The notes beneath the pieces were generated by a model, which did not search any database, was not told where the DNA came from, and worked only from the letters and a program-made list of their open reading frames with translations. A stretch of DNA of 64,000 nucleotides from Candidatus Limnocylindrales bacterium (GTDB taxonomy: Bacteria > Verrucomicrobiota > Verrucomicrobiia > Limisphaerales > UBA11358): assembly GCA_035604955.1 (NCBI GenBank), contig DATNHM010000056.1, positions 22,733-86,732 of the forward strand. Direction: 5' to 3'. How positions within the stretch are numbered: position 1 is the stretch's first letter; each line of letters starts with the position of its first letter. A program made the position numbers and the translations under genes. This document shows, in pieces, positions 37,435 through 63,075 of the stretch.

Positions 37435-40400
37435 TTAACGCTCGAGCAGCCGGAAGAATTTCGGGCTGGTGGCCGGGCCGGTCTGGTTAGTGTCCGTAAA
37501 GGTGTACACGCCGTTGCTCAAGCCCAGCACGGGATTGGACAGGACGAACCAGTTCGATAACGGCAATCCGAGGTTCGTCGTCCAGAGCACCGAATACTGG
37601 TAATTCGTCGGCGCCACCCACTGGAACCAGACGGCGTTGCCGATCATCGCGGTGTTGATGATGGTCAGCGACTGCGGGATGGGCGTTGAATAGGGATATT
37701 CAACGAGCCGGTAGAATTTCAGCGGCCCCCAGCCGCCCGTCAGCGAGCCGTCATCCAGGAACTGGAAGAGGCCGTATGCCGCGTTGGTGGGCGACAGGGC
37801 CACCGGCCACTTCAGAACCACATTGGAGATGGTATGCCACGCAATCGCCGGCGCGAGGTTGGTCGCCCATTCCACCTGGAACTGGTAATTCGTCGGCTCG
37901 GTCCATTGCAGCAGGATCTCATTGGTCCCGCCGACATTGGTAACCGTGATGCTGGAGATGGACGGCGGGTTGGTCGGCGGCGAGCCGTAGGCAAAATTCA
38001 CCTGAAAAGAGAATATCACGTTGCTGGTGCCGAGGCTTTGGATGCCGAGATAATAATTCGCGCCCGGCACGAGCGGCGGCGTGGAACTGCCCGTGAGCAC
38101 GAACGTGCCGCTGGTGTTGGTGGACACCAACAGCACATCACCGGCGCCGGTGTTGCCGGTGGGGGGAGTGTTCTGGTTGAACCACACGTCCACCGGGCCG
38201 CTGGCAGAGACCAACACATTGGTCGCTGCAATGGCGTTGGTCGGCACGGTCACCGTCAACGGCGTGATAGTCCCGGACACCACGATATTGGTCACGGGCG
38301 TCGAGTTCGTAATCGGTCCGGAAAGCAGATTGGCCACCAGCCGGTAAAACTTTTCGGGCGGCCATCCGCCGGTCAGCGAGCCGTCGTCAAACCAGGAATA
38401 ATCCCCGTTGGTGGGCGTGTAGGTGACGTTGATGACCGGGTTCGAGACCGTGTTCCAGGGAATCACCGGCGCGAGATTGGTCTTCCACTGGATGGTATAT
38501 TGATCATTGGTCGGCCCAGTCCACTGGAGCAGAAAGCCATTTGTTCCGTTGACGTTCGTCTGCGTGAGGGTGGGACCGGTGATGGGAATGGGAATCACGA
38601 GATGGAAATCCACCTCCAACCCGAAGTTCACGGGCACATTGTTGGTGTTTTGCACACCCAGGTAATAAGTCGCGCCGGGCACGAGCGGCGGCGTGCTGCC
38701 CGCGCTCAAAATGGAAATGCCGCTAGTCGCATTGGGAATCAGGAGATAATCCGGCGGATTGGTGCCCGTGGGCAATCCAGTCTGATTAAACCAGACATTG
38801 ACCGGCAGGCTGGCAAAGAGCAGCAGATTGGTGGCGTAATCGGCATTCGTCGGCAGCGTCACCGAATAATAGACAAAGCTGTTCGTCGGAACGGAATTGG
38901 TGGTGGGCACGCCGTTGGTCAGGGAAGAGGCGATATGGTGGAAATTCACCACCAGCGCGTAAGTGGCATTGCCGGCATTCGTGTTTTGGACAGCCAAATA
39001 ATAAGTCAAGCCGGGCAGCAGCGGCGGCACCGAGTTCGTGCTCAGTACATTGGTTCCGCTGAGCGCGTTGGCAATCAGGAGATAGTCCGGCGGTGTCAAG
39101 CACACCGGCGGCCTGCTTTGATTGAACCACATGTTCACCGGCACGGTGGAAGAGAGCAGCAGATTCGTGGCATAATCGGCGTCCGGCGGCACCTTCACCG
39201 AATAATAGTCCACGCCATCTCCTGAAATGGCTCCAGCAACGGTGTTCGTTACCGGCACGCCGGGGGTCACCGGCGTTGTCTGGAAGTAATGGAAATTCAC
39301 CTGGAACCCGCTCGTTACGGGGAAGGCATTGGGATTTTGCAGGCCGATGTAGTAAATGCCGCCGGGCACGATGTTCGTGGGCACGCTGAAGGTGCTCAAT
39401 ACCGATGTGCCATTGATCACGCCGCTCAACAGCAAATTATTGCCCGGCGGTGGAGGGGTGGCGGAATTAAACCATACGTTCAACGGGCCGGTGGCAAAGA
39501 CCAGAATGTTCGTGGCGACATCCGCGTTGGCCGGCACATTGATCAGGTAATTGGTCCAGCCGCCGGCGGGAATCACATTGGTCGCCGTGGTGCCGGGCGG
39601 AATCGCGTTGGCATTGGTGCCGAAGGTCACATAATTGAACCGCAACTGCCAGCTCAGCAGTTCCGGTATGGGATTGGTGGCGCCCACACGGTCATCCTGG
39701 ATTTCCAGCGTCCAATTACCCTGCGCATTCAGCCCGTCATACGTGTCCAGCGACTGTTCGGGCAGATAGTAAAGGTTATTGACGGACGGTGATAAGCTGA
39801 AGGAATCCAGTAACATGCCTGGTTCCACACTAGCAATCTGCAGCGGCGTTGCGTTCTGGGTGGCCGTGAAAACGATCGTTTTCGTCTGCCACGCGGAGTC
39901 GTTGCCCAAGAGTGTAGTGGGCGTGCCGCCGTTGATGCTGACCTGAGCCTCGGCCAGCGATTGGGGATTGGGCTCGCCAGAATCGAACTTGCCGGCGGAG
40001 CCGTTCTGGTAAATCGCCTTGATCTCAGAAGCGGACAGGGCGCGGTTGTAAATACTGATTTCATCCATCAATCCCGCGTAACGGGTGCCATTGAGAGCCT
40101 CCGCGTTGTTCCGCCATCCCAAATTCACGGGCTCTCCGATACTCGGCGGAATATCAGGTGTTGCAACGTTTACCTGCACCTGTCCGCCATTGTAGTACAG
40201 ATATTCGGTGGCGGTTGCGAGGTTATAGGTAAACGCGATATGGCTCCACGCGTTGGCAGGGACGATTCCGCCGGAACTGGTGATGGCCACGTTGGCGTTA
40301 GGACGAAGATTGGCATAGATAGCACCCGGAATGGTGCTCAGTCCGGAACCATTGATCCACAAGTGCGCCGCCGAACCTTGACCGGGACCTCCGTAGTCAA

Positions 40401-43400
40401 TAATCGGCTCATATTGGCTTGTGGTGGGATAAATCCAGCCTTCAAAGGTCAGATTGCTCACTGCCAGACTCGCGGAAGGTCCGATGGTTACCGAACTGGA
40501 ACTGCCATTGAAATTGAAGGCCTGCCCAACTTTACCTGCCTGGTAGGTGATGTTCGGCGCGCTGACGGCGTTATTGCCAAAGCCGCTGCTGTCATTGGTG
40601 TTATTTTCGGCGCGCCACCATCCGACAATGCCCGGCCCGCGATAGCGGAAGGTCAGGACATAAGTCTGGCCAGCCACGGTGGGCAGGGTGCTGGAAACCG
40701 TGCCATTGGCCAGCGCCAGGAATTGGTTTCCGGCGTCGGCATTGGCAGGATCATTCACCACACTCACCTGATTGCCGAGTACGTTCCACACATTCGTTCC
40801 GTCATTGAAAGTGGTTGTGTAATCCCCTGGCGTAGCGGAATCAAAACCACTGGCAGCAAGGTTGGTTGAAGATGTGTTCGGCAAAAACGGCGGTACCGCA
40901 AACTTGATGGGTGTGGTCGTCAGGTTCGTGTTCTCGGTGAAGACCAGATAATTGTAATTGGTGATGACGGCAGTCACGCTCGCGGCGTCCAGCAACATCC
41001 CCGGTTCAAGGCCTTGAATCTGCAATGCGGTGGTGCCGCTGGTGGCTGTAAAAGTAATGGTTTGGGGCTGCCAGGTGGTGTTGTTGCCAAAGAAGGTGTT
41101 GGTGGTGACGCCGTTAATGCTGACTTGCGCTTCAGCCAGGGCCCCTGGAATAGACTTGTTGGGATTAAAATCGCCGTTTGTACCGTCGGCGTAAATGGCC
41201 TGGATTTCAGACGCGGACAAACTTCTGCCATAGAAACCGAGCTCGTCAATCGAACCGTCGAAGTAATCCTGGGTAACACCGGGCGCTCGCAGCCACGCGC
41301 CAATCGTCACCGGCGTGGTGGACGCGTACACCGGTACCGGGGCATTGATGTGCACGCCAACCGGCGCCCCGTTCACATAAAGGCGCCGAGTTCCCGTCGC
41401 GCTGTCGTAAGTCGCGGCGACATGATTCCATTGATTCAAAGTCAGCACATTTGCGACAACGAACGCCTGAAACACAGCATTGCCCTGATTCGCCAAATCG
41501 CTGATCGAAAAGCCAAGACCCTTCCCCACGTCGGTTTGAAAACTGTAACTCCGTTCGTTGCTATAAGTCCCTTGGTCTCCCCATTTCACCAAAATCTTTG
41601 CTTCTTTATCAACCAGCGGATAAATCCATCCTTCAATCGAGAAGGCCCCCGTAGGATTGAGGGAAGGCGCGTTGAGAATCCCGACATCGTTGTTCGCCCC
41701 GTTAAAGCTAAAGGCCGAACCAACTTCGCCCAAACCATAAGCGCCGGTGCCGTTCCAAGTGCCGTCATTTCCACCACCCGCGCTGTCAAGCGGGTTGTTC
41801 TCGCCGCGCCACATGCTGACGATGTCCGGCCCACGATACTGGAACGTCAGAGTATAGGTGGCGCCCGGTACCGTAGCCAGGGTCGTGTACAGCGTGCCAT
41901 TGGCCAGCGCCAGCAGGTTGCTATTGCCTGTATAGGCATTGACCGGGTCGGTTTGAACGCTGACTTGATTGCCGGCCACAATCCAACCGCCCACGGGCTG
42001 GCCGGCGGCATAGTCTCCCGGCGCCACCGTATCAAAGTCGCTGGCCAGCGCATTATTGGTGGTAACGGTGGCGACCCCGCCTGCGCCGTTGGGATCGGTG
42101 CCGCCGCGGTTTTCCATCAGCAACTCGCGCGTGCCGTCGGGACTGATCAAGTGGAACACCAGATCCGAAATGCGCGGATGCTGCACCGCAATGGCCACGT
42201 CCATTGACGAAATGATTTGGTTGTCCGGCACGTTGATCTGATCGGTCGTCACGGCGTCATCCAGAATCGGGATGGGCGTGTCGGTGGAACTGTAAATCGT
42301 CTGGGCCGGCACAAACGGCAGGTCAATGGTCGCAAAAAGGGTCACCTCTTGTACCGCCGACTTGGGGTTGGGATTAAACAGGCCGATAAAATAGCGGCCC
42401 GAAACCAATGGCGGGCCGAGGGATATAACGCCATTCGGAGTGAGCGGCACCACCGCATCATAATTATTTGTGGTCGGCTCCGAGCCGAATTTGACAAAAA
42501 GTTCGACCGGCGGAGTGGCCGTGTCGGTAAGGTTTGTGGCATAAACCGTCAGGTCGGTCGCCCCGGGCGGCACGTCAACGAAAGTGTAAACCCAACTGCC
42601 GCCTGGAACGTAATTCGTTATGACGCCAACCGTGGGATCCAGGTGCGGGTAAATCGTTGTGGTGAAACCGTTCACCGCTCCGGTTTGCGTCAGTGAATCA
42701 TCCACTTCATTCAACATCCACACGCCGAGGCCTTGTTGGCCGAAATAGCCGATCAAACTACCCGGCCCATCCGACGGGCGCGAACCGGGAATGCCGCCGC
42801 CCGCGCTGTCGTCATAGGTCAGGAAATACGGTCCGGGCGGACCGCCCAGGGAATCGTGATTATTCAGCACATCGGCGTGAGCGCCATTGAGCGTGAGCGT
42901 GCCGATCAGGTCGCCGAAATTCTGATGCGTAATCTCGTTGGCAACCGTGACCGTTCCCACCGTCTCCGGATAGATCGCCAGGCCGAAGACGTAGCCTTTG
43001 CCCGGAACGGTCGGGCTCCCGTCGGGGATATTCATTGGCACCGGCACGCCATACACCGTCTGAACTCCGTTGTTCATTGTGCTGAACGGTGCCGCGCTGA
43101 AGATGGCAATGAAGCCGTACTCGGCCGATTGCTGATCCTCCGACTTCACGCCGACATAATAAACGTTCGGAGCAGGTCTTGACCACGAATTGGTGTCCAC
43201 GACAAATTCCGTGGTTCCTCGCCCCAACGATGCGCCGGCGAATGGGCCGCCGGGCGGCGCGCCAATCTGCGTGCCGACGACGGCGTTGGAAATCGCCGCG
43301 GGGTTCAGATTGGTGATTGACGGATCGGTGGTCACGTACATGTCAATGTCCGCTTCGCGCGTGGCATTGCCGACCGAGGTTTGATAAACACCCAGGCGAG

Positions 43401-46400
43401 GAATGGAGAGCGTGTCTGGGTCAGGCGCGTTCGGGTTAAATGTGATAAACGCCGCGTTGGAAAGACTGGACGGGTTGAGGTTGGTGACGACATAGAATTG
43501 CCACTGGTTGGTCTGGCCGACGGTCACCTGCCAGTTGTTCGGCCCGAAACCCTCCGGAGCGCTGGCGGTGAACGGAATCGTATTCGTGCCCAGCAATGGG
43601 CTGTTCGCGCCGGCAAACTGGTTCAGCAATTCTGCAAAGCTGGTGGCCGTAGGCCCGCTTCCTGCAGAAGTTTGGGAGGGATAAGTGATTTGCTGGTCGC
43701 CCGTGGCGTTGTACACCGACGAAGTGGTGTTGGAGGTCACCATCATCACATTAGTCAGCCCGCTGTTGCCGGTGGAAATCACCAGCGCATAATCCTGAAC
43801 GACATTGTTGGTCTGCGCGGTGACGGCGTTGACGTTGACGCGGTAGCCCAGGACGGTGACGGAAAAATTCGTGCCCGCCCCCGGCTGCAAATAAACGTTT
43901 TGCACGTTGTTGATGGAGTCAAAGACCGGCGGCGTGTTGGTGGCGTGCGGGTTGTTAACCGTCGAAGAGCCAATGTCGTTGCCGTAATAGACAATCGGAT
44001 TGGTCGGGTTGCTGAGGTTGGTCACGACCAAAACCAGGTTGTTCACGAGTTTGATGGCGGCGGCGGGGTCGCCGGGCGGATCGGTCCACGCCAGCGTCAC
44101 GCGCAACGGCGCCCCATTGGTGGCAAAGGTGACTTGATAGGTCTGGCTGCCTCCGGTCGCCAAGGCATTGGCCGGGCTTTGGTCCTGAATGTAAGCGGAA
44201 CAAGCCACGCTGAGCTGGTTGGTGACGCCCGGCGGCAGCGAATCCGGCAGGTTTACCAATCCCCAGCCTTCGTAATTGAGCGTGTTTTGGACCAGGAAAT
44301 TGTAGAGGCCTGTCGCCTGCCCGCCGTTGATGATCATCGCCTTGAGCATCGCCGGGCTGGGCAGAACGTTGTAGGCATTGAAGTAAAATTGCTGCATCAA
44401 CGCCAGCACGCCCGACACGTCCGCCGCCGCCATGCTGGTGCCGGTTTCATAGCGGTAATACGGCCCCTGCCCGGTGCTGAGGGAATTAGGCGTCCCAATG
44501 GAATTGTCCAGATTGCTCAACGCCAGAAAATAATTCCCGCTGCCGTTGGTCGTGATGACATCCGTCCGCAAATCGAAAATCACCTGATTGGGCGTGTTGT
44601 TGCTGATGGCAAAATTGAAACCGAAAAAGCTTTGCGAATTGTAAATCGCTGTGAGGCTTGGAGTCCCGGTAGTGCCGGGAATCAACACTGGATAATTGGT
44701 GAAGGGACCGTACACAGTCGGCGAACCGAACAAAGTAATTCTCAGGGGAAGATCGGCAAAACTGAACGGCGAGTTGGCATTCGGAAAAGTCCAGATCTGG
44801 CATTCCACCGTATTGGTCGGAATCGTCGGAAACGGCCGGGAAACAATTGAACCCGGCTGGACCGTGAAACCGGTGTAATATTTTGACTGGTCGTTGGTCG
44901 GGTTTTGATAAAAATACGTTCCGATGTCCCATTGTTCGGAGCGGGTGGACAGGGTGAACGTGCCCGGCGCGCAGACATCCGGTTTGTAACGGCCAACCGA
45001 GCCTTCGATGCCGACGCCTACGTTGCCCCGGCTCGAAAATCCGGCGACGCGATAGCGGGTGGAAGTCTCATCCGCCCACGACGTGTTGGGTGAACCGTCG
45101 GCATTGGTCACCGTGACCGAGATGTTGCGGTCTTCCTGAATCGCGCCGACCGTGATGACGTCCTTGGCCGTGGCGGGCGACTCAATCGAGTCGGCTACGC
45201 CGCCGCCGAGGTCCTCGCTGTCGCTGCCGTTGCCGGCGTTGCCGGCGGCGAAGACAAACAACACCGGTTGCGAACCTGTGACAAAGGGAAGTGCGTCGCG
45301 CGTGGCCGCGTCGTAGCTGGCCGCCGCCAGGTCATAAACGCTGTCGCCTTCATAGACCCAACTGTTGTTGGAAATGAGCGCGTTGGTCAGCGCCGGAACC
45401 GTCTGAAAATAATAGTCGGAAATGAAATTTGAAGTCGCCTCCGCGCCGCCGAAAATGCCACCCACCGAATACAACGTCGCTCCCGGCGCCATGCCGCGAA
45501 ATTCGTAATTGGTGCCCGTGCCGCCGGGCAGAGTTGAACCCGGCGCGTTGGTCACGGTCGTGGATTTCGCGCCGTCACCGGCGATGATGCCCGCCACGTG
45601 CGTGCCGTGGCCGTTGGTGTCCACCAGGCTTTGCGGCGCGTCCCCAATGACGCCGGGGGTAATTTTGTTATAGTTGCCGCCGCCGGATAAATCGGGATGC
45701 TGAGCGTCAATGCCGGTATCGTTCACCTCCACCGTCACACCCGCGCCCGTCAACCCCAGATAATTGGTCGCCGTAAGACTGTCGGCGGCCACGCCATTGG
45801 CGGCGCGCGACAAATCATTCGCCACGGCGCGCCGATGGAATGGCTCCACGATTTGGACCCCGGGCAGAGTGGCCAGGGCCGTCCAATTTTTCGGCGGAAT
45901 GACGCGCACGACGGGACCGAACGGCGACTGGTCATCGCCCACGACCTGGCCGCCGAGTTTTTCAATTTGCTGGACCGTCGCCGGCGCGTTGTCGGCAAAC
46001 AATCCGAGTTTCAACGCCTGGCCGTCCGCCAACTGATTTTGGTTGACCGCCGGATAAAGGAGCGATGACTGTATCTTGTAATACGGTTCGTAGGGAACAA
46101 CCGTCTGCGTCTGCGGATTGGCGCTCAAAACTCCGGCCACGCTGGCGGAGGCGCGCACCAGATAGGCGTCGTTCGGAATATAGGCAACCATCGTCGCGCC
46201 CGCCTGCGCGAGCATGGCCCGGAAGGCATTGTCAATCGGGCCGCGCGCCTGGACGATGTATGCGCCGGGGTCGCCCGGCGATTGCAGGTTTTTGGGGAAG
46301 ACAAAATTGAGCGGCAGGCTCGTATCCATCAACGCGTTCGCCAATAAAATCGCATGGCGGTCGCCGACCAACTGGCCGATGGATTTGGTGGTGTTGCTCA

Positions 46401-46737: not shown

Positions 46738-46743
46738 TTGGTA

Positions 46744-53404: not shown

Positions 53405-54301
53405 TCATTGCAATTTCGGTTCTCTCAGCGTCGCGCGGCCGGTCAGCGGGTCAATGTCAATGAGGTTGTAGGCGTTCGTGCTGTTGCCCAGCGGAGCTTC
53501 ATAAACCTGCGGCGACCGGAGCTGAAACGTCTTGGTGGCCGGGTCCACCGCCGGCAACAGGCTGCCACGCGCCAGCGGGATGTATTCATGTTGGGAGGCC
53601 ACGGTCTGCCCGTCATCCGTCAACTGGCCGAGGTAGTTGAAGGCGATGTAAGGCAGATAAAAAGGGGAGCCAAAGGCGGGAGTGTTCGTTTCCGCGGGAA
53701 ACGGAATGGTGTTGGTGTAAGCAAAGGGATAAATCGAGAAAAATTTTGTGGGATCAATTGGATCTTTGAATTGGTAAGGCTGGGTGGGCTGATAAAATTT
53801 CCATTGGGCGATAAACGTGCCGTCGGGCAGCGACTGCCAGGGGGCGAGATAGTGCCATTGGTGGTTTCCGGGCTGATCGCCCACCGCGCCGAGAGCGGCA
53901 AACGTGTAACCGGTCAGTTGCTTGTCGCACAGATTGGTCGTGGCGGGCAGGGCCTGTAGCGCCGCGGACAGGTTGTTGTTCCAAAAATTCGCCGGGACGA
54001 AAACCATATAAACCGTGGTGCGCTGGCTGATGGCCAGTTGGCGGGCACGCGCGACGTCGTTGAGCATCTGCTGGTCGGCGGCGGTCATGGCGTCCGCGTG
54101 GCCGAAGTTTTTGAGCGCCGGCACGGCCAACGCCGCCAGCAGGGCCATGATGCTCAACACAATCAGCATCTCGACCAGGGTAAAAGCCCGGCGGGTGACG
54201 GGTGACGGGTGACGGGTGACAAGACACGGGACGCGGGCACACACAGCACTGGCTGCCCGGCTCTCGACACTCGACACTCGACACTCGACACTCATAATCA
54301 T
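53405..54301 (-). CDS. prepilin-type protein (GspH/FimT-like minor pseudopilin), 298 aa
   Basis: MIMSVECRVSSVESRAASAVCARVPCLVTRHPSPVTRRA|FTLVEMLIVLSIMALLAALAVPAL...DVARARQLAISQRTTVYMVF. Confidence 0.75.
   Translation of the reverse strand: MIMSVECRVSSVESRAASAVCARVPCLVTRHPSPVTRRAFTLVEMLIVLSIMALLAALAVPALKNFGHADAMTAADQQMLNDVARARQLAISQRTTVYMVFVPANFWNNNLSAALQALPATTNLCDKQLTGYTFAALGAVGDQPGNHQWHYLAPWQSLPDGTFIAQWKFYQPTQPYQFKDPIDPTKFFSIYPFAYTNTIPFPAETNTPAFGSPFYLPYIAFNYLGQLTDDGQTVASQHEYIPLARGSLLPAVDPATKTFQLRSPQVYEAPLGNSTNAYNLIDIDPLTGRATLREPKLQ
54193..54297. repeat. paired heptamer arrays (GGGTGAC x4 / CTCGACA x4-5)
   Basis: 54193-54220 is four perfect GGGTGAC units. 54263-54297 is CTCGACA x4 plus CTCATAA. 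The arms are only partly complementary (about 5 of 7 positions). Confidence 0.9.
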
Positions 54302-55164
54302 TGCCAGCTCAGAATGTTGTCTTTGTTGGCGCCCGTGTTGGCACTGGCATTGGGATCCACCTTCCCATCCGGCCCGGCCGACCAGACCATTACGTTGCCG
54401 TGGAACCGGAAATTGTCGGCGGTGCCATCGGGATCAATCAAACCGTTTAGTCCCGGATTCGAATTTCCACTCGGACCTGACACGGCTGACAAGCTGTAAA
54501 AGGCGTCCTTTGCCTGATTGTCCGCATTCACGTCCAGGGTGATGACGTAGGGATTTTTCCACGGATCGCGATAAACCAGATCCGGCCCCACGCCCGGCAG
54601 ATTCGGAGCACTGACCATTTTGGCGTTCAGGAAAACGGTTTGCTGGGGGTTCTTTTGGTGGTTTTGGTTGACCGCAGTCACCGTGGTGTTGGTGATGTCC
54701 ATCAAAATGGCGATGACTTCCGAATTGTTGGTATTATAGGTGACTGCCGGAGGATTCAGCAGGTTGAATTTGGCATTCGCCACGCCATTGGTCCCGTAGG
54801 TGAAACTCCCGCCATTTGCTGACGCCGCGTTCTGCGCCAGGCTGGAAACCGGCATGCGGCTGTAGGTCGAATCATAATTCTGAATGGCCGTGACGAGGTC
54901 GCTGATTTGCAACTGCGCCTGCCTCTTCTGCGCTTGCAGTTTGGCTGCCGACAGGGCCGGCAACAGCATGGCCGCCAGAATGGCGATGATCGCGATGACC
55001 GTCAGCAATTCCACAATGGTAAAAGCCCGCCTTCGTTCCACTCCGGCGCGGCAAGCGTGACGGGTGACGGGTGACGCGTGGCACGAAAAGTCGGCGCGCG
55101 CTTCGTGTTTAATCTCGCCACTCGTCACCTGCCACCCGTCACGTTTTATCATTTTGGTTTTCAT
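54298..55164 (-). CDS. GspG/PulG-like major (pseudo)pilin, 289 aa
   Basis: MKTKMIKRDGWQVTSGEIKHEARADFSCHASPVTRHACRAGVERRRA|FTIVELLTVIAIIAILAAMLLPALSAAKLQAQKRQAQLQISDLVTAIQNYDSTYSRMP. The start at 55164 is preferred to the ORF-track 55389, whose extra 75 aa cover repeat-filled intergenic DNA. Confidence 0.75.
   Translation of the reverse strand: MKTKMIKRDGWQVTSGEIKHEARADFSCHASPVTRHACRAGVERRRAFTIVELLTVIAIIAILAAMLLPALSAAKLQAQKRQAQLQISDLVTAIQNYDSTYSRMPVSSLAQNAASANGGSFTYGTNGVANAKFNLLNPPAVTYNTNNSEVIAILMDITNTTVTAVNQNHQKNPQQTVFLNAKMVSAPNLPGVGPDLVYRDPWKNPYVITLDVNADNQAKDAFYSLSAVSGPSGNSNPGLNGLIDPDGTADNFRFHGNVMVWSAGPDGKVDPNASANTGANKDNILSWQ
55055..55142. repeat. inverted heptamer arrays (GNGTGRC x4 / NNGYCAC x4)
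   Basis: 55055-55082 is GCGTGAC GGGTGAC GGGTGAC GCGTGGC. 55115-55142 is TCGCCAC TCGTCAC CTGCCAC CCGTCAC. Confidence 0.9.
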
Positions 55165-55201
55165 AGGTTTGAAAAAGTGTTGTGCCGGGAATGTTGAAGC
55201 C

Positions 55202-55288
55202 GGAAGGGAGAAGGAGGAAACACTCCGCGAACGATTGAACCCGGCCAAATCGTTTCTGTCTTCTGCCTTCCGCCTTCCGCCTTCCGTT
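55202..55288. repeat. purine run GGAAGGGAGAAGGAGGAAACA facing heptamer array TTCTGCC TTCCGCC TTCCGCC TTCCGTT
   Basis: 55202-55222 and 55261-55288, read directly. GGAAGG and CCTTCC cores are complementary. It is intergenic, between the two GspG-like genes. Confidence 0.8.
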
Positions 55289-55467
55289 CCAACCGCACCA
55301 CCAGGCGCGGACGCCACGCGCGGTCGTGCCATTGAACCGGAATCGGAAGGGAGCGGAGCGCGGGCGGCCCGCCCGCGAGTTCCGGGCACGGCTTCGCGCG
55401 GACGAGCCGTCCGCGCTCCTGCGGCGGCGGGGTCAACCGGATGTTGTCGGCGTTGCGCATAAAAAAC

Positions 55468-56226
55468 TCAGGGCACCGAGTTGTTGTTGAGCTGCACCGA
55501 TTTGGTCCAGTTGCAGATGAGGTTGGTATTCCCGGCAATTTCGAGTTGAATCCACAAGTCATACGAGCCGGGATTGTTGGTTCCGGGATAGGCGTAACGC
55601 CAGGGGTTCACGCCGGAGTTGGCATTTCCCAGCGGATTGTAGCTGTTATCCGGTCCGCCGGAAGGAGTGACCAGGAGGTTGACCGGTGTGCCGCCGACCG
55701 TTACCTTGGAAATTTGATTGGTGTTCAGGTCCGGCAGAAAATTTCGGGCCGGTTGCGCGGATTCGTCGCCGCCGGGTTTGGCGCAATTCATGAAGCCACC
55801 CACCCCCGACCCAAACACGGTACCCAACGAGGCTGCGGGAATCGTGGCGGTGTGGTCCAGGGTCATGTAGTTGCCATTGGTCGGAATGGTCCCTGCCAGT
55901 TCATAATACAATTGGTTGGTCAAGGGACCATTGGGACAGGCCGGCGGATAAAAACCGTAGGCGGATTTGTACTGTTCCAGCGCGGTCTGCAACTGCGACA
56001 TCTGGGCCTGGGCGTTGTGAATAAACGCCTGCCGCCGCACCGCGCTGCCCACCGGCAGAATGAGCGCGGCAATCACGGCAATGACAGCAATGACCGTCAG
56101 CAGTTCAATCAGGGTAAAAGCCAACGGGTGACGGGTGACGGGTGACGGGTGACGAGCATACCCAGAACCCGCCACGTTTGTCTCGTCACGCGTCACTCGC
56201 CACTTGTCACAGTTGTTCGTTTTCAT
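55468..56226 (-). CDS. GspG/PulG-like major (pseudo)pilin, 252 aa
   Basis: MKTNNCDKWRVTRDETNVAGSGYARHPSPVTRHPLA|FTLIELLTVIAVIAVIAALILP...QMSQLQTALEQYKSAYGFYP. Confidence 0.8.
   Translation of the reverse strand: MKTNNCDKWRVTRDETNVAGSGYARHPSPVTRHPLAFTLIELLTVIAVIAVIAALILPVGSAVRRQAFIHNAQAQMSQLQTALEQYKSAYGFYPPACPNGPLTNQLYYELAGTIPTNGNYMTLDHTATIPAASLGTVFGSGVGGFMNCAKPGGDESAQPARNFLPDLNTNQISKVTVGGTPVNLLVTPSGGPDNSYNPLGNANSGVNPWRYAYPGTNNPGSYDLWIQLEIAGNTNLICNWTKSVQLNNNSVP
56126..56210. repeat. inverted heptamer arrays (GGGTGAC x4 / NNGYCAC x4)
   Basis: 56126-56153 is four perfect GGGTGAC units. 56183-56210 is TCGTCAC GCGTCAC TCGCCAC TTGTCAC. Confidence 0.9.
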
Positions 56227-56498
56227 CGTTCACGCACTTCGTGTTCCATTCGTTCGCTGAGCCACTGCTTGATCATGCTCTGGTAATTCAAGTAACGCGA
56301 CCGCGCCAGGCGTTTGATGCGCGCCAGCATCCGCGGGTCCATGCGCAACGTGATGGTCACGGACTCGGCGGATTCGGCGCTGCTGGCCACGGCCGCGTCC
56401 ATCAGGCGCAGGTCCGGCCGGTTCTCCGCCCAAAAGTCCGCCTCGGCGTCTTCGGTGTCGAAGAGCGGGACTTCTTCCCATCTGGCAAATGTTCGCAT
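56223..56498 (-). CDS. brnA: BrnA-like (CopG/RHH-type) antitoxin
   Basis: MRTFARWEEVPLFDTEDAEADFW...SVTITLRMDPRMLARIKRLARSRYLNYQSMIKQWLSERM. Start taken at the Met after the heptamer array. The stop overlaps the ATG of the next pilin gene (ATGA). Confidence 0.6.
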   Translation of the reverse strand: MRTFARWEEVPLFDTEDAEADFWAENRPDLRLMDAAVASSAESAESVTITLRMDPRMLARIKRLARSRYLNYQSMIKQWLSERMEHEVRER

Positions 56499-56500
56499 AA

Positions 56501-56589
56501 CTGTGACCTGTGACCTGTGACGAGTGACGTGATTTTCACGCCCGCGATTCGCCAACCATTCGCGTCACTCGTCACCCGTCACTTTTCAC
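56501..56589. repeat. inverted heptamer arrays (CTGTGAC x3 + GAGTGAC / NYGTCAC x3 + TTTTCAC)
   Basis: Arrays at 56501-56528 and 56562-56589. They span the brnT stop and the brnA 5' region. Confidence 0.9.
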
Positions 56590-56875
56590 CCGCGCTCAGT
56601 GTCTGGTCCATTTTCCGCTGGTAAAAGAACCGTTCTTCCGGCTCGAACGGGCGCGCCAACAAGACGCGCACCAGCCGCCCATTGGCCCGGTACACGCTGA
56701 AAATGCCGATGCCACCCGCCGACATGCCCAGGTTGAAAAAGCGCGCCTGCACGCCAAATCGCGGCGAGTCCGGCAGCAGCCGGATGGCAAACGGGTCTTC
56801 AAAGGACTCTTCAATTTCCAACGGAGTCAAAGAACCATCCGTTGCAAACGGCGGATTATTCCAATCAAACTCCAT
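56579..56875 (-). CDS. brnT: BrnT-like (DUF497) toxin
   Basis: MEFDWNNPP...LTPLEIEESFEDPFAI...FSVYRANGRLVRVLLARPFEPEERFFY matches the BrnT pattern (F.WD...FEE...F.DP......R.ISAR.A...ER..Y). It lies directly upstream of a BrnA-like gene. Confidence 0.6.
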   Translation of the reverse strand: MEFDWNNPPFATDGSLTPLEIEESFEDPFAIRLLPDSPRFGVQARFFNLGMSAGGIGIFSVYRANGRLVRVLLARPFEPEERFFYQRKMDQTLSAGEK

Positions 56876-56921
56876 AACGAGCTAACTGTAAATAACACGC
56901 CCATGCAATGTGTTTACAATG

Positions 56922-56951
56922 TATTTACGCATGGATGCTGTTCTTTGTCAA
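56922..56951 (-). promoter_or_regulatory. candidate sigma70-type promoter for brnTA
   Basis: On the minus strand: TTGACA (56951-56946), an 18-nt spacer, then TAAATA (56927-56922), about 47 nt upstream of the brnT ATG. The surrounding DNA has GTAAATA/TATTTAC and CATGC/GCATG inverted repeats that could be an operator. Confidence 0.3.
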
Positions 56952-56997
56952 CGGTTTTTTTCGAACCGGAGCGAAATGGCTTTGGACCAGTCAATTA

Positions 56998-58308
56998 TCA
57001 GTCCCCGCCGCTGCCGCCGCTGCCGGACAGGTTGCTGATCATGGCAATCAACGGCAGGAACATGGCGATGACGATGCTGCCCACAATGACGGCCAGAAAG
57101 ATGATCATGATGGGCTCCAGCAGGGAAGTCATGGCCGACACGGCATTGTCCACTTCTTCATCGTAGTTGTCGGCAATGCGCAGCAGCATTTCCGGCAGGG
57201 CGCCGGTCTGTTCACCGACGTCCACCATGCTGACGACCATGGGCGGAAAGACCCCGGAACCTTCCAACGGCGCGGTGATGGTCTCGCCTTCCTTGACGGC
57301 CTCATGGACCGCGCCGACGGCGTTGGCGATGATGACGTTCCCGGCGGTTTCCTTGACAATGGTCAGCGCCTGCAAAATCGGAACGCCGCTGCTGACGAGC
57401 GTGCCGAGGGTGCGGGTGAAGCGGGCGATGGCCACCTTGTTGATGACCGGGCCCAGGACCGGAACTTTCAATTTGAACTTGTCCCAGACGTGCCGGCCGA
57501 TTTTGGTCCGGATGATCAGCATAAACACCACCACGAAGGCCGCGACACAGATGGAGGTTACGAAGAAGTGATCCTTGACGGCGGAACTGACCGCCAGCAC
57601 AAAGAGGGTGAATTTCGGCATCTTGACATTCATGCCTTCAAAGACCCCCTGAAACCTCGGGATCACAAACGTCAGCAGCAGGATCATGATGCCCGTCGCC
57701 ACGATGAGCACGGCGATCGGATAAAACATCGCCGCCTTGACCTTGCCCTTGATCTTCTGCGCCTTTTCGGAAAATTCCGCCAGGCGTTTCAGCACCACTT
57801 CCAGCACGCCGCCCAGTTCGCCGGCCTTGACCATGTTGACGAAGAGGCGGTTGAAAACCCTGGGATGCTGCGCGAGCGCCTCGGAAAACGTGCTGCCGCC
57901 TTCGATCGCGAGCGCCAGCTCGCCGAGAATGCCCCGGAGGGTGGCGTTGCGCTCCTGTTTTTCGAGCACGCGCAAACCGCGCAGGAGCGGCAAACCCGCG
58001 TCCACCAGCGTGGCCAACTGGCGCGTGAACGTCGTCAACACCTTCGGCTTTACCCGGCCGCTCAGTCCGGGAATTTTGATCTGGATATCGAGCGCGCCCC
58101 CCCGCTTTTTGCCGCCGCCGGCCCGGGGCGCTGCCTTGCTCTTCTTCCGCGTGATTTTTTCCTGCGGTTTTTCGGCCTCGACAATTTTGGTCGGGAAGAA
58201 ACCCATTTCCTTGACGCGGCCAATGGCCTCGTTCTGGCTGGCGACTTCGATCGTGCCTTTGGTTTCTTTGCCGTGCGCATCCAGCGCCACGTAACTATAT
58301 TTCGGCAT
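56998..58308 (-). CDS. pilC: type IV pilus / T2SS platform protein (PilC/GspF family)
   Basis: 436 aa. MPKYSYVALDAHGKETKGTIEVASQNEAIGRVKEMGFFP, two T2SSF repeats, and three TM segments. Confidence 0.9.
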   Translation of the reverse strand: MPKYSYVALDAHGKETKGTIEVASQNEAIGRVKEMGFFPTKIVEAEKPQEKITRKKSKAAPRAGGGKKRGGALDIQIKIPGLSGRVKPKVLTTFTRQLATLVDAGLPLLRGLRVLEKQERNATLRGILGELALAIEGGSTFSEALAQHPRVFNRLFVNMVKAGELGGVLEVVLKRLAEFSEKAQKIKGKVKAAMFYPIAVLIVATGIMILLLTFVIPRFQGVFEGMNVKMPKFTLFVLAVSSAVKDHFFVTSICVAAFVVVFMLIIRTKIGRHVWDKFKLKVPVLGPVINKVAIARFTRTLGTLVSSGVPILQALTIVKETAGNVIIANAVGAVHEAVKEGETITAPLEGSGVFPPMVVSMVDVGEQTGALPEMLLRIADNYDEEVDNAVSAMTSLLEPIMIIFLAVIVGSIVIAMFLPLIAMISNLSGSGGSGGD

Positions 58309-58319
58309 AAACTAAAACA

Positions 58320-58409
58320 GTCCCCGGTCCCCGGTCTCCAGTCCCCCGTCAAAGGACCGCGAACGCTGCGGACTCGACTGTGGACTGCGGACTGTGGACT
58401 GCGGACTCA
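58320..58409. repeat. inverted heptamer arrays (GTCCCCG-type x4 / GGACTGY x6)
   Basis: 58320-58347 is GTCCCCG GTCCCCG GTCTCCA GTCCCCC. 58368-58409 is GCGGACT CGACTGT GGACTGC GGACTGT GGACTGC GGACTCA in 7-nt register. The region is intergenic, between the second ATPase gene and pilC, with the last 3 nt overlapping the ATPase stop codon (58407-58409). Confidence 0.9.
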
Positions 58410-60110
58410 TGTATATTTGACGATTTCCTCAATAGTGGTATCACCTTCAAAAATACCGCGCAAGCCGTCTTCGCGCAAGGTCACCATCCCCAGCTCGACG
58501 GCTTTCTGGCGCACCACCACCGTCGGCGCGCGTTCATTGATCAGGGTCCGAATCGCCTCGCTGATGATGAGCAATTCGAAGATGCCCTTCCGGCCCTTGT
58601 AACCGGTGTCGTTACAGGTGGAACAGCCGCGGCCATAATGAAAAACCTTGTCGCCCAGGTCGTGCGGCGAAAGATTCAACAGGCCCAGTTGTTCCTCCGT
58701 CGGTTCGAACGGCGTCCGGCAATTCGAGCAGATGGTCCGGACCAGCCGCTGGGCCAGCACCGCCATCAAGGTCGAGGAAATCAGAAACGGCTCGACCCCC
58801 ATGTCCAGCAGGCGCGTCACCGCGCCCGGCGCGTCATTGGTGTGCAACGTGCTCAAGACCAGGTGGCCGGTCAGCGACGCCTGGATGGAAATCTGCGCCG
58901 TTTCCAGGTCGCGCATTTCCCCCACCATGATAATGTCCGGGTCCTGGCGCAAGAACGACCGCAACGCCTTGCCGAACGTCATGCCCGCCGCCTCGTTGAT
59001 GGCCACTTGCATAATGCCCTCGATGTCATATTCCACCGGGTCTTCGGCGGTGAGCAGTTTGGAATCAAGGGTATTGATGCGCCGCAGACAGGAATAGAGC
59101 GTCGTGGTTTTGCCGGAACCGGTCGGGCCGGTCACAATCATGATGCCGTTGGGACGTTGAATCGCCTCGGTGACATAATCGTGCACGTATTTGGGGAAGC
59201 CGAGTGTTTCAATGTCCAGGTTGACCGCCGCGCGGTCGAGCACGCGCAACACGACCGATTCGCCGAACTGGGTCGGCAGCGTGGAGACGCGCAAATCAAT
59301 CTGCCGGTTGGCCATGGGGAAATTGATGCGCCCGTCCTGCGGCAGCCGCTTTTCGGAAATATTCAGGCCGGACATGACCTTGATGCGCGAAATCACCGGC
59401 AGGGCGAGGTGTTTCGGCGGGGGCGACATTTCATAGAGGGCGCCGTCCACGCGGTAACGGATGCGGAACTCGGTTTCAAACGGCTCGAAATGAATGTCAC
59501 TGGCGCGGTCCTGGATGGCCTGGAACAGGACCAGATTCACAAATTTCACGATGGGCGCCTGGTTGGCCAGGTCTTCGGCCAGCTTCGCGTCATCGGCGGC
59601 TTCGCTCGCTTCGCGGGCGATTTCGGCATCCTCACCCAGTTCCTTGAGAATCGCGGAGACGTCCCCCGTTTCCTCCTGGCCGTAATGCTGGTCAATCGCC
59701 TTTTGAATGTCGGCGGGGTCGGCCACCACCACCTGCACGTCCTTTTTGACCGCGAAATGGATTTCGTCCGGCCGCCCCGGGTCGAGCGGGTCGGCCAGCG
59801 CCACCTGCACCGTGCCGTCGTGGGCGGCGACCGGCAGGCACTGATACATGCGCGCGACATTGGCCGGAATCGTCTGTAACAACTCGGGCGTAAATTGGAC
59901 ATCGCGCAGGGAGATGACCCTGGTGCCCAGATAATTCGCCATCACCTGCAGGATGTCGTCGAGCTGCATGATCCCGAAATCCTGGAGCAGATGAATGACC
60001 GGCGTGCCGCTGCGTTTGAATTCGGCGGCGACCTCCTCGTACTGCAGGTCGTCAATCAACCCCAGTTCTTTGACGAGGGACAGCAACGGATTGGAAACTT
60101 CTTCGGCCAT
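58407..60110 (-). CDS. pilB: GspE/PilB-family secretion/assembly ATPase (copy 2)
   Basis: 567 aa. N-terminal T2SSE_N-like domain, Walker [11 protein letters not shown], Asp/His boxes ([17 protein letters not shown]), and the tetracysteine CSNC...CSTC. Confidence 0.9.
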
Positions 60111-60122
60111 TTTATCAAAATA

Positions 60123-61241
60123 TCATTTTGCCCCGGATTTGGACGGGGCGGGTTCGCCCAGGGACTGGGCCAGCTCCAGTTCCTGCAATTTTTGCTGGAT
60201 CGTCGTCGGGTCCTGCGCCTTGGTGATGACTTCCTCGCGCGCAATCATGCCCTGCAGGTACTTGTCCATCAGGAACGAGTCGAGCGTCACCATGCCGTAT
60301 TTCGCGCCGGTCTGGATGTCCGAGTTGATGCGGAACGTCTTGTTGTCGCGGATCAGGGCGGCGATGGACGGCGTGTTGACCATGACTTCAAAAACCGCCA
60401 CGCGGCCCGGCTTGTCAATCCGCGGAATCAGCAACTGCGAAATCACCGCCTGCATGACGGTGGAAAGCTGAATGCGCACCATTTCCTGCTGGTTGGTCGG
60501 AAACGCGTTGGTGATGCGGTCAATCGTCTTGGCCGCGCCCGTGGTGTGCAGCGTGCCGAAAACCAGGTGCCCCGTTTCCGCCGCCGTGATGGCCGCTTCC
60601 ATGGTTTCCAGGTCGCGCATTTCACCGACGAGAATCACATCGGGGTCCTGGCGCAACGCGCGGCGCAGCCCCTCGGCAAAATTCGGCACGTCCACCCCGA
60701 TCTCGCGCTGCGTGACCAGCGACTTTTTATGGTGATGGTAATACTCAATCGGGTCTTCGATGGTGATGATATGCACCTCGTCGCGCTGCTCATTAATGAC
60801 GTTGAGCATGGAGGCCAGCGTGGTGGTTTTGCCGGAACCGGTCGGCCCGGTCACCAGCACCATGCCGCGCGGCTTGTACAGCAATTCCGTGGTGCTGGGG
60901 GGAACGCCGATTTGCTCCAGGGTCAGCAACTTGTTGGGAATCTGCCGGAGTACCAGGCCAAAGTTGCCCTTCTCCTTGAAGACGCTGACGCGGAACCGCG
61001 CCACGTCACCGAAGGCAAAGCCAAAGTCCGCGCCGCCGTGTTCGCGGGTGCTCTGAATATGTTCCTCGGACGTGATGCTGCGCATCAATTCCTCGGCATC
61101 CTCCGGTTTGAGCGCCGGGCCTTCCACGCGGTGCAGAATGCCGTGTACCCGGATGGTCGGCGGCGTGCCCACGCGGATGTGCAGGTCGGACGCGCCTTCC
61201 GACACCACCAACTGCAACAGATCGGACATGGAGTAGGACAT
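60123..61241 (-). CDS. pilT: twitching-motility retraction ATPase PilT
   Basis: 372 aa. [38 protein letters not shown], and [20 protein letters not shown]. No N-terminal extension. Confidence 0.9.
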
Positions 61242-61250
61242 AAAATTTCA

Positions 61251-61369
61251 AAGGCTGAAGGCGGAAGGCGGAAGGCTGAAACCCCGGGCAGCCGCCCGGA
61301 AGTTTACGGCGGGCATCGGTTCCGGGTTTGATTTTTCGTTCTTCATTCTGCCTTCTGCCTTCTTCATTA
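61251..61369. repeat. inverted heptamer arrays (AAGGCKG x4 / TKCNTTC x5)
   Basis: 61251-61278 is AAGGCTG AAGGCGG AAGGCGG AAGGCTG. 61335-61369 is TTCGTTC TTCATTC TGCCTTC TGCCTTC TTCATTA. The loop contains the hairpin CCGGGC-agcc-GCCCGG. Confidence 0.9.
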
Positions 61370-61371
61370 AA

Positions 61372-63075
61372 TTATGACTCGTCGCCGATGGTCGCCCGGA
61401 TGACTTCCTCGGGCGTCGTCAGGCCGGCGAGCACCTTGCGAATGCCGTCTTCGCGCAAGGTGCGCATGCCCATTTCGCGGGCGCGGGCGCGCAAAACGGA
61501 CGAGGCCGCCTTGTCGTAAATCAATTTGCGCGCCTCATCATCAATGGTGAAAATTTCGAAAATGCCCATGCGCCCGCGGAAGCCCGTGTTCGAACAGTCG
61601 CTGCAGCCACGGCCCTTTTGGATCGTCGCCCCCTGCAGATTGTCGGCCGTCAGGTTTAAGGCGCGCAACTCCTGCTCGGTCGCCTGATACGGTTGCACGC
61701 AGCGGCGGCAGACCTTGCGCACGAGGCGTTGCGCCATGAGACAGCGCGTGGACGAGGCGACCAGAAACGGTTTCACGCCGATGTCCACCAGACGGGTGAC
61801 CGCGCTCGGCGCGTCATTGGTGTGCAGCGTGGAGAAAACCAGATGGCCGGTCAGGGACGCGTTGATGGCAATGGACGCGGTCTCGAGGTCGCGAATTTCA
61901 CCAATCATCACCACGTTCGGCGCCTGGCGCAGAATCGAGCGCAACGCGGCGGCAAACGTGAGGCCGACGGGTTCATTGACCTGCACCTGGTTGATGCCGG
62001 ACAGAATATATTCCACCGGGTCCTCGACCGTGATGATTTTGCGGTCGGGCCGGTTGATGAAGTGCAGGCAGGAATACAGGGTGGTGGTCTTGCCGGAACC
62101 GGTCGGCCCGGTCACCAGCAGAATGCCGTCCGGCAGGCCGATCAGGCGCTCGAAGGTCTGCTGGTCGTCCGTGAAAAATCCCAGTTCGGCCAGGCCGAGC
62201 CGCAAGCCTTCCTTGTCAAGGATACGCATGACGATGCTTTCGCCGTGATACGTTGGCAGGCACGACACGCGCAAGTCAATGAGCTTGTTCCCCACCTTGC
62301 TCTGGATGCGCCCGTCCTGCGGAATGCGATGCTCGGAAATGGACATGTTCGACTGGATCTTCAGCCGGGTGATGATGGACGCCTGCAACCGTTTGGGCGG
62401 GGCCTTCATCTCGTGCAGCACACCGTCAATGCGGTACCGCAGCCGGAAACGCTTGCTCAAGGGTTCCAGGTGGATGTCCGAGGCGCGCATCTTGAAAGCG
62501 TCCACGATCATCTGGTTGACCAGCCGGATGAGCGGCGCGTCCGCGTCCACGATCGCGTTGTCGTCGTCAAGTCCGCCCTGCGGCACTTCGACCTCGCTTT
62601 CGGTGAGCTCCTGGATCGCCTTGTCCACCACCGTCTGGCCCGTGCCGCCATAATACTTGTTCAGCGCGTTCTCGATGTCCGGTTCCGACGCCACGCGCAA
62701 CTCGATCTCCGCGTTGAGCAGATGCGTGAGCGTGTCAATGGTGTTCAGGTCCGACGGGTCGGCGATGGCCACGGCGACCTTGCCGTCGGTTTTGAAAACG
62801 GGGACGACGCGGTATTTTTTGGCGATGTGGCGCGGGATGACGGAAATGACGTCGTCGGGAATTTTCAAGCCGCCCAGTTGAATGACTTCCGCGCCGAATT
62901 GGGCGGCCTTGGCCTGGGTGACATCCGCCGGGCGGACGAGCTTGTTGGCCAGCAACAAGTCCACCACGCCCACGCCGGAAGTTTCGGCTTCCCGGCGCGT
63001 TTGCGCAACCTGGTCGGCATTGACAATGCCCAGGTCCACCAGCACGTCTGCCAGATAATCGTCTTTTTCAGCCAC
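61372..63075 (-). CDS. pilB: GspE/PilB-family secretion/assembly ATPase (copy 1)
   Basis: 567 aa. T2SSE_N-like N-terminus (YLADVLVDLGIVNADQV..., VVDLLLANKLVRPADV...), [27 protein letters not shown], and the tetracysteine CRRC...CSDC. Confidence 0.9.
   Translation of the reverse strand: MAEKDDYLADVLVDLGIVNADQVAQTRREAETSGVGVVDLLLANKLVRPADVTQAKAAQFGAEVIQLGGLKIPDDVISVIPRHIAKKYRVVPVFKTDGKVAVAIADPSDLNTIDTLTHLLNAEIELRVASEPDIENALNKYYGGTGQTVVDKAIQELTESEVEVPQGGLDDDNAIVDADAPLIRLVNQMIVDAFKMRASDIHLEPLSKRFRLRYRIDGVLHEMKAPPKRLQASIITRLKIQSNMSISEHRIPQDGRIQSKVGNKLIDLRVSCLPTYHGESIVMRILDKEGLRLGLAELGFFTDDQQTFERLIGLPDGILLVTGPTGSGKTTTLYSCLHFINRPDRKIITVEDPVEYILSGINQVQVNEPVGLTFAAALRSILRQAPNVVMIGEIRDLETASIAINASLTGHLVFSTLHTNDAPSAVTRLVDIGVKPFLVASSTRCLMAQRLVRKVCRRCVQPYQATEQELRALNLTADNLQGATIQKGRGCSDCSNTGFRGRMGIFEIFTIDDEARKLIYDKAASSVLRARAREMGMRTLREDGIRKVLAGLTTPEEVIRATIGDES

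Follow-up and report, generated by a model that had tools for sequence, protein, structure and literature searches.

A conserved type IVa pilus-like gene array ending in a giant S8 protease gene in Limisphaerales/Pedosphaera-type Verrucomicrobia

The window analyzed here, a 64-kb stretch of contig DATNHM010000056.1 from a Limisphaerales genome, carries on its minus strand (63075-37435) a locus of 13 genes that encode predicted type IV filament motors, pilins and minor pilins and, at the distal end, a giant secreted S8 peptidase. Comparison across 80 species-level Limisphaerales/Pedosphaera-type loci indicated that the locus is a single conserved operon-like unit that runs from the first PilB-like ATPase gene (PilB1) through the S8 gene. 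The giant S8 gene lay downstream of A, the gene for a giant pilin-like protein, in 66/67 loci. We read the encoded system as a retractile type IVa (T4a)-like pilus whose tip complex, formed by the minor pilins D, B and C together with A, would export or display the S8 protease-lectin. The genetic link is seen directly in the genomes, whereas the physical link would be drawn from it, and we hold this reading to be about evenly balanced between right and wrong.

Peat and soil are rich in Limisphaerales/Pedosphaera-type Verrucomicrobia. Because the clade is almost uncultured, little is understood of its surface machinery, and the locus appears to rank among the large gene arrays that it conserves most strictly. 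The system is assembled from known part types, yet a pilus specialist would find the syntenic giant protease, the two PilB proteins, the fixed BrnT/BrnA-like pair, the 1454-aa tip pilin-like protein and the repeat-hairpin leaders surprising. Our literature searches returned nothing about this locus, about the Verru_Chthon cassette with which we compare it below, or about pilin genes with heptamer hairpins.

Conserved gene order and the giant S8 protease

Relatives were sampled as one genome per species. We scanned ~185,000 species genomes with the 1454-aa A protein, confirmed 545 by tblastn, and analyzed the best 80 loci, onto which all window proteins were mapped by tblastn. Counts were restricted to loci with enough flank; for S8, at least 3 kb of sequence had to follow A, and S8 was scored as present if it lay ≤3.5 kb downstream. 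The labels of the best 80 loci were mostly Verrucomicrobiia, Limisphaerales, subdivision 3, Limisphaera or Pedosphaera, and the few with other taxon labels were apparently mis-binned. An identical A protein was present on a JGI metagenome contig, and one fetched contig (L001) was identical to the window over 46684-55397. At least 1510 homologues of A occurred in a word-indexed protein collection, in which the few source names given pointed to Verrucomicrobiota, and the A family contained 2003 representatives at E ≤ 0.001 (single-sequence search, 50%-identity library).

The order PilB1-PilT-PilB2-PilC-BrnT-CopG-pilin1-pilin2-D-B-C-A-S8 was found essentially everywhere in the relatives, down to 36% identity of A, and was reproduced in gene calls with Pfam labels on three long relative contigs. 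The BrnT-like and CopG-like genes were each present in 63/64 loci, PilC in 58/62, PilB2 in 55/58, and PilT in 53/56. Median identity across relatives was highest for PilT (87%), followed by the BrnT-like protein (84%), PilB2 (81%), the CopG-like protein (79%), PilC (78%), and the pilins (46-51%). ATGA stop/start overlaps were found at the CopG/pilin1, pilin2/D and C/A boundaries. The gap between A and S8 ranged from 4 to 1235 nt in relatives and was <30 nt in several genomes. Upstream of PilB1, the two relatives examined had genes unrelated to the locus and different from each other, and in one relative an opposite-strand methyltransferase lay downstream of S8. With unrelated genes flanking both sides, the unit would extend from PilB1 to S8.

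An initial annotation, made from the window alone, had listed the same 13 open reading frames (ORFs), and all of them were present on the minus strand at the stated coordinates and sizes, with two gene starts revised below (Table 1). That annotation had also proposed that the protease gene is linked to the pilus cluster, with synteny among relatives as the check; the adjacency of S8 and A, retained down to 36% identity of A, settled the question of linkage.

Table 1 Genes, junctions and heptamer-array hairpins of the locus, in window positions.
Feature	Position	Strand	Description
PilB-like assembly ATPase 1 (PilB1)	61372-63075	-	567 aa, starts with GTG; first in the locus
PilT retraction ATPase	60123-61241	-	372 aa
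PilB-like assembly ATPase 2 (PilB2)	58407-60110	-	567 aa
PilC/GspF platform protein	56998-58308	-	436 aa
BrnT-like protein	56579-56875	-	98 aa; conserved core component
CopG/BrnA-like ribbon-helix-helix protein	56223-56498	-	91 aa; ORF open to TTG 56555
Pilin 1	55468-56226	-	252 aa including 36-aa leader ending ...HPLA↓FTLIELL
Pilin 2	54298-55164	-	288 aa with ATG 55164 as start; mature sequence from FTIVELL (55023)
Minor pilin D (FimU/GspH position)	53405-54301	-	298 aa, N_methyl
Minor pilin B (PilV/GspI position)	52391-53383	-	330 aa, N_methyl
Minor pilin C (PilW/GspJ position)	51343-52371	-	342 aa, N_methyl
Giant pilin-like A (PilX/GspK position)	46982-51346	-	1454 aa; class-III-like N-terminus ...QHG↓VALIITL
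Giant secreted S8 subtilase-lectin	37435-46635	-	3066 aa; last gene of the locus
A/S8 junction	46636-46981	-	346 nt; nested hairpin repeats
PilB1/PilT hairpin	61251-61368	-	arrays 61368-61346 and 61280-61251; GAAGGCA-type arm / AGCCTTC-type arm
PilB2/PilC hairpin	58320-58407	-	arrays 58407-58376 (AGTCCRC) and 58343-58320 (GGGGACC/GACTGGA)
BrnT-like/CopG-like hairpin	56499-56582	-	arrays 56582-56561 (GTGACGN) and 56529-56499 (GTCACNN)
Pilin 1 leader arrays	56204-56184, 56156-56120	-	RNA fold z = -2.7
Minor pilin D leader hairpin	54293-54190	-	heptamer arrays
Minor pilin B leader array	53332-53307	-	AGCCTTC
Minor pilin C arrays	52387-52364, 52328-52302	-	heptamer arrays
Post-A array	46979-46932	-	RAAGGCT, reverse complement of AGCCTTY; directly after the A stop

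The S8 protein contained a Peptidase_S8 domain (PF00082, 111.7 bits), a P_proprotein domain and two Laminin_G_3 domains, and its N-terminus carried a Sec-type hydrophobic signal or anchor with no pilin signal, which bears out the prediction of a giant secreted S8 peptidase. The catalytic triad (Asp306, His343, Ser734) was kept in 64-65/65 orthologues and the oxyanion Asn424 in 63/65; given the conservation of the triad, S8 is predicted to be under selection as an active protease. Across the clade, identity was ~50% over the first ~1600 residues and ~39% over the C-terminal part, which was modular and in relatives carried lectin C or RCC1/WD40-type modules. Length in relatives ranged from ~2000 to >4600 aa, and the gene was split in two in one genome. 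This pattern is the one expected for a conserved catalytic/docking core with a diversifying binding end. A TafC match on S8 was rejected as irrelevant; it reflects merely a LamG-type domain common with the haloarchaeal fimbrial protein.

The repeat-filled gap that had been noted before the S8 gene was confirmed at 346 nt. Its RNA was predicted to form nested long-range hairpins (z = -1.3), among which lies a GC-rich palindromic element (46741-46810, minus strand; …GGGCAGGGGACTGCCCGCCCTAC). This element (46741-46763) was single copy in the window and absent from the other fetched loci except L001.

Motors, pilins and relationship to known machines

The motors were identified with more certainty than the fiber proteins. 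In Pfam searches both PilB-like ATPases carried MshEN and T2SSE domains, the latter at 446.8 bits in ATPase 1 and 456.6 bits in ATPase 2. Against the TIGR02538 PilB model (cutoff 675.65) they scored 622 and 627.6 bits, respectively, and against GspE (cutoff 630.25) 602 and 620 bits. The top PDB matches were Geobacter and Myxococcus PilB for ATPase 1 and Myxococcus PilB for ATPase 2, and the solved relatives of both ranked in the order Geobacter/Myxococcus PilB, Thermus PilF, GspE. The two ATPases shared 46% identity, and both kept the GPTGSGKT Walker A motif, Walker B, the His box and four Cys. The initial description of two full-length 567-aa ATPases with intact Walker A and tetracysteine motifs was therefore correct, and neither gene was degenerate. 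Across the 120 best clusters, the identity of homologues to ATPase 1 did not fall below 86%. PilT passed the cutoff of the TIGR01420 PilT/PilU model (444.8 bits vs 319.1), and PilC had two T2SSF (PF00482) domains (211 bits) and scored ~400 bits against the PilC and GspF equivalog models, under their cutoffs (GspF 403.6 vs 424); the PilT and PilC/GspF identities assigned earlier were confirmed by these Pfam/NCBIfam searches. Judged by these scores, the motors appear closest to T4a pilus proteins and not to those of a type II secretion system (T2SS). Two co-conserved PilB paralogues within one operon are noteworthy in themselves.

Five pilin-like genes had an N_methyl match and a class III motif (G/A↓F-T-L-x-E followed by a hydrophobic helix). 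Pilin 1 gave a sub-threshold T2SSG match and an N-terminal GspG match of 36 bits (cutoff 88.85), pilin 2 gave N-terminal matches to GspG and Myxococcus PilA below cutoffs, and the similarity of the pilins to GspG was confined to the N-terminal ~60 residues. Source pipelines annotated pilin homologues as PulG or type II secretion system protein. The mature pilins were 215-245 aa long. T4a pilin leaders are short; the prepilin leaders here were much longer, at 30-47 aa. For pilin 2 the ORF of the initial annotation was real, but the start is probably ATG 55164 and not GTG 55389, which gives 288 aa in agreement with the JGI gene call. A terminator-like hairpin with a T-run (55465-55482, minus strand) directly followed the pilin 1 stop, and ~300 nt separated it from pilin 2, an arrangement that would suit a role of pilin 1 as the major pilin, expressed in abundance.

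Minor pilins D, B and C had their best or near-best family matches at the N-terminus and below cutoffs. For D, the best NCBIfam matches were Verru_Chthon cassette protein D (34.7 bits, cutoff 70), ComGD and GspH; B weakly matched Verru_Chthon cassette protein B (20.7 bits, cutoff 51.4) and PilV; and C matched GspJ and Verru_Chthon cassette protein C (29.6 bits, cutoff 256.5). In profile searches against PDB, D and C had no match beyond pilin alpha-1 helices, and B had none. A had no Pfam match, and its N-terminal hydrophobic segment was pilin-like, without Glu5. Only the N-terminal ~60 aa of A matched Verru_Chthon_A (27.6 bits, cutoff 332.3; model positions 1-56 of 1296) and GspK. The pilin-like nature of the genes first labeled G, H, I, J and K thus held up, but their family assignment came down to sub-cutoff N-terminal matches and gene order. 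Since the PDB profiles found only alpha-1 helices, the H/I/J/K labels are based on gene order and on Glu5, which D, B and C have and A lacks.

The closest cassette in layout was Verru_Chthon (TIGR02596, TIGR02598, TIGR02599 and TIGR02600; D, B, C and A), which comes from the same phylum. It has three prepilin-like genes in the order D-B-C, followed by a ~1300-aa protein with a pilin-like N-terminus, and D-B-C-A was likewise the order in the window and the 80 loci. The models gave best or near-best N-terminal matches for the four genes, but all four scores were far below the family cutoffs, which suggests that the genes of this locus are a separate family with an analogous layout. A in particular appears to be a large family of its own, Verru_Chthon A-like in architecture and not a member of the Verru_Chthon A family. 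True membership was rejected; distant A-family members also matched only the first ~50 model positions.

The initial annotation had called the mixture of T2SS-like pilins and type IV pilus motors atypical. The mixture is present but less paradoxical than it was made out to be: T4a pili own equivalents of GspH-K, namely FimU/PilV/PilW/PilX, followed by the non-pilin PilY1. The layout is therefore best read as that of a T4a-like operon with S8 at the PilY1 position. Type IVa minor-pilin/PilY1 operons include Pseudomonas fimU-pilVWXY1E and the Myxococcus minor pilin/PilY1 clusters (PMC7541494). Like a T4a system, the locus has PilB-like, PilT and PilC motors, pilins with class III signals, four successive minor-pilin-like genes of which the last lacks Glu5, and after these a large non-pilin protein that is predicted to be exported by Sec and has a variable, putatively adhesive part. 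Unlike one, it has two PilB paralogues that flank PilT, a BrnT/BrnA-like pair fixed between motors and pilins, leaders of the length given above, and a protein at the K/PilX position that is 1454 aa long with no known fold. In place of PilY1 it has a subtilase-lectin of 2000-4600 aa that is predicted to be active and has no PilY1 domain, and pilMNOPQ and pilD are not linked to it.

The same parts could also be read as a T2SS in function, with a short pseudopilus piston of GspG-like pilins and an H/I/J/K-like tip expelling S8 and with PilT only resetting the piston. GspG-like pilin N-termini, the PulG annotation of homologues, the H/I/J/K-like cassette order and a hydrolase gene beside the machine, as is typical of T2SS substrates, all fit this reading. 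ATPase 2 and PilC missed the GspE and GspF cutoffs by 10-20 bits, and the C-terminus of pilin 2 (SAGPDGKVD...NKDNILSW) contains an SxGPDG...D.I..W motif that resembles the end of GspG. On the other hand, PilT passed its family cutoff, whereas a T2SS has no retraction ATPase, and for both ATPases PilB outscored GspE in the NCBIfam as well as the PDB comparison. The mature pilins were far larger than GspG, about twice its size, no locus protein reached the GspE, GspF or GspG equivalog cutoffs, and no GspC, GspD, GspL or GspM was found in the window. We consider a T2SS piston quite improbable.

Export or display of the protease

In the T4a-like reading, the two PilB-like ATPases and PilT would drive extension and retraction on PilC, the fiber would be built of pilins 1 and 2, and D, B, C and A would form a priming/tip complex like FimU/PilV/PilW/PilX or GspH/I/J/K. 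S8 would pass the inner membrane by Sec, dock on the D-B-C-A tip complex, and then be pushed through the outer membrane, to be displayed at the pilus tip in the position of PilY1 or released in the manner of TcpF and CofJ or the Dichelobacter subtilases. The conserved N-terminal 1600 aa of S8 may serve catalysis and docking, and the variable lectin-like C-terminal modules may bind substrates.

Precedents exist for parts of this scheme. PilY1 is located at the tip of T4a pili. TcpF and CofJ are tip-docked cargo of type IVb pili, and their genes lie inside the pilus operon. In Dichelobacter nodosus, type IV fimbriae are needed for optimal secretion of the subtilases AprV2, AprV5 and BprV, which have a P-domain type C-terminal extension (PMC3480457). 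S8 is likewise subtilisin-like with a P-domain. The Dichelobacter protease genes, however, lie outside the pilus operon and their enzymes are of ordinary size, whereas S8 is giant, multi-domain and syntenic with the pilus genes, and its dependence on the pilus for export is putative. If S8 is delivered by the pilus, the repertoire of type IV filament cargo and tip proteins would grow to a ~320-kDa enzyme, and pili would be linked to extracellular protein/polymer degradation in soil carbon turnover.

Several observations weigh against delivery of S8 by the pilus. Neither S8 nor A had a PilY1-family match in Pfam or NCBIfam, and the resemblance to PilY1 is one of gene position only; we infer contact between S8 and the pilus from linkage rather than from direct evidence. 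As the initial annotation had stated for the window, no secretin, prepilin peptidase or PilMNOP gene was found in the 64 kb, and no secretin, PilD or PilMNOP gene was found in the locus flanks of relatives, so the outer-membrane route is a putative one; these genes may lie elsewhere in the genome. At 320 kDa, S8 is also large for a secretin channel. Structure prediction gave the scheme no help. A had no PDB sequence-profile match, and its AlphaFold2 model (57 homologues) had a mean predicted local distance difference test (pLDDT) score of 54, with only residues ~450-1010 of the fragment confident and nothing below E 0.08 in Foldseek against PDB. The AlphaFold2 model of pilin 2 (pLDDT 50) was confident only in the N-terminal helix and was unusable. 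One relative, L037 (14257-24248), had a complete pilus gene set and no S8 gene within 10 kb downstream. Finally, a weak terminator-like site (46808-46791) lies inside the 346-nt A/S8 junction, and S8 could consequently have its own transcript in this genome.

In L037, an ATTTACG/CGTAAAT array pair directly follows A, and unrelated ORFs come after it.

Some of these points suit a different explanation, in which S8 is a conserved but mechanistically independent protease-adhesin that takes another export route and is kept near the pilus by a common surface-colonization/polymer-foraging program and its regulation. S8 has no PilY1-like or pilin-like feature, its C-terminus is modular and variable as in many free adhesins, the A/S8 gap in this genome is long and holds a terminator-like hairpin, and L037 has the pilus genes without S8. 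Against independence, S8 is adjacent to and co-oriented with A in all but one of the 67 genomes over the whole identity range sampled, with gaps of only 4-30 nt in several, a linkage much tighter than is usual for merely co-regulated genes, and the junction-repeat system runs on across the A/S8 boundary. An independent S8 seems to us somewhat unlikely, though it deserves serious attention.

S8 might instead be a pilus-processing enzyme that trims A, the large pilins or the long leaders, or that sheds pili. Its triad is invariant, its P-domain is of the kind found in proprotein convertases, and the prepilin leaders are unusually long (median 39 aa). Yet each leader terminates at a canonical prepilin peptidase cleavage site (G/A↓F-T-L-x-E), and a protein of 2000-4600 aa with lectin, LamG and propeller modules goes far beyond processing needs. 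We regard this role as very improbable indeed.

Heptamer-array hairpins and the BrnT-like/CopG-like pair

Tandem arrays of 3-6 heptamers, read on the coding strand, occurred where cistrons of the locus meet, at nearly all such junctions (46932-61368, minus strand), and a complementary array usually followed 20-40 nt after each. The window contained 19 period-7 arrays, of which 17 lay in 46900-64000, while periods of 5, 6, 8, 9 and 10 gave 0-1 arrays each. At non-pilin junctions the hairpin occupied the whole intergenic spacer. At pilin genes the arrays lay inside the ORF and encoded hypervariable leader peptides, which read VTRHPSPVTRHP or LAFGLQPSAF. Predicted RNA folds had z-scores from -4.3 to -0.4. 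An Rfam scan of the locus returned no known RNA family, and promoter and terminator predictions in the locus were at or below the counts expected by chance.

The arrays were also a feature of the relatives, with 379 of period 7 against 54 of period 6 and 19 of period 8 in 1.65 Mb, and 360 of the 379 fell in the PilB-to-A part of the loci. Heptamer sequence varied by gene and genome, but the paired-array layout persisted: arrays formed strong duplexes with adjacent sequence in 57% of cases vs 33% with sequence 1 kb away (Wilcoxon p = 8e-22). Near class III sites, 176/184 arrays sat in an ORF open from an upstream ATG, with leaders of median 39 aa. Arrays were rare in the most distant relatives.

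The initial annotation had cited the heptamer family AGCCTTY at the junction before the protease as a sign of linkage. An array of this family is indeed present after the A stop, as is an array in 19/74 relatives, but it is not specific to that junction and marks almost every junction of the locus. These observations support placing the protease junction in one repeat regime with the others.

Arrays were identical in two independent assemblies of the same strain. In a 96%-identical long-read relative (L087), indels of 6, 18, 7 and 9 nt lay inside arrays and could be sequencing error; both arms of the PilB2/PilC hairpin differed in length there. Metagenome scans for repeat-number polymorphism with array-flank patterns gave no match. 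Another relative (L080) had a ~300-nt run of GGACTGT/TGTGGAC heptamers between pilin 2 and D (~6898-7200), which held 13 of the 19 arrays detected in that locus and indicates that arrays can expand greatly. The only period-7 arrays of the window outside the pilus locus were at 24578-24612 (ATTGCCG x5) and 28185-28208 (ATTTACG x3), and both heptamers recur as pilin-leader arrays in relatives (e.g., L005 and L040).

Two roles can be envisaged: the arrays may couple translation by occluding start regions, or their slippage may cause phase variation. The stop/start overlaps together with hairpin-occluded starts would fit translational coupling, and the hairpins may represent a novel type of intercistronic control element whose sequence is also coding.

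The pair first annotated as brnT-brnA separates the motor genes from the pilin genes. The window copy of the BrnT-like protein had no Pfam match, while 23/30 orthologues matched PF04365 BrnT_toxin (best E 2.6e-6), and the 98-aa protein is probably a diverged BrnT. Its partner matched PF12441 CopG_antitoxin at 40.2 bits (cutoff 28) and BrnA weakly. The designation of the pair was thus sustained, for the first protein via its orthologues and for the second by a score above the CopG_antitoxin cutoff. The ORF of the CopG-like protein was likewise sound, but its start is likely ATG 56498, which gives 91 aa as in orthologue gene calls.

The BrnT/BrnA type II toxin-antitoxin system of Brucella abortus has the same makeup, a small BrnT-fold protein followed by a CopG/ribbon-helix-helix antitoxin-family protein. 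The pair in this locus differs from it in holding one operon position in 63/64 genomes at 79-84% median identity, above PilC. Conserved like the pilus motors and fixed in position, it is unlike a mobile, patchy toxin-antitoxin module, and it appears to be a fixed core component rather than an incidental or mobile insert. The high identity and fixed position speak against a mobile addiction module and for a putatively domesticated pair with a regulatory function, which makes it a candidate case of toxin-antitoxin domestication. Together with the junction hairpins it may set pilin gene expression.

A more elaborate version of the T4a-like reading places the protease on a retractable line. The giant subtilase-lectin, carried on a giant tip pilin, would attack or reel in protein/glycan substrates, and the operon would be controlled cistron by cistron via heptamer hairpins that also encode the hypervariable leaders and might be recognized by the BrnT-like protein, as a domesticated RNase, together with its ribbon-helix-helix partner. 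Taken with all its parts, we think this version unlikely and offer it as speculation.

The remaining 37 kb of the window held ordinary metabolic genes. A second small pilin set was found on the plus strand (29108-32070), with two prepilin-like genes of 173 aa (FTLVEV) and 209 aa (FTLTEI) and, at its end, a 598-aa protein whose N-terminus is GspK-like but lacks Glu5 and in which no Pfam domain was found. On the minus strand (7759-11892), adjacent proteins of 606 and 747 aa combined a multihaem cytochrome c with a cytochrome b561/Ni-hydrogenase-type membrane domain.

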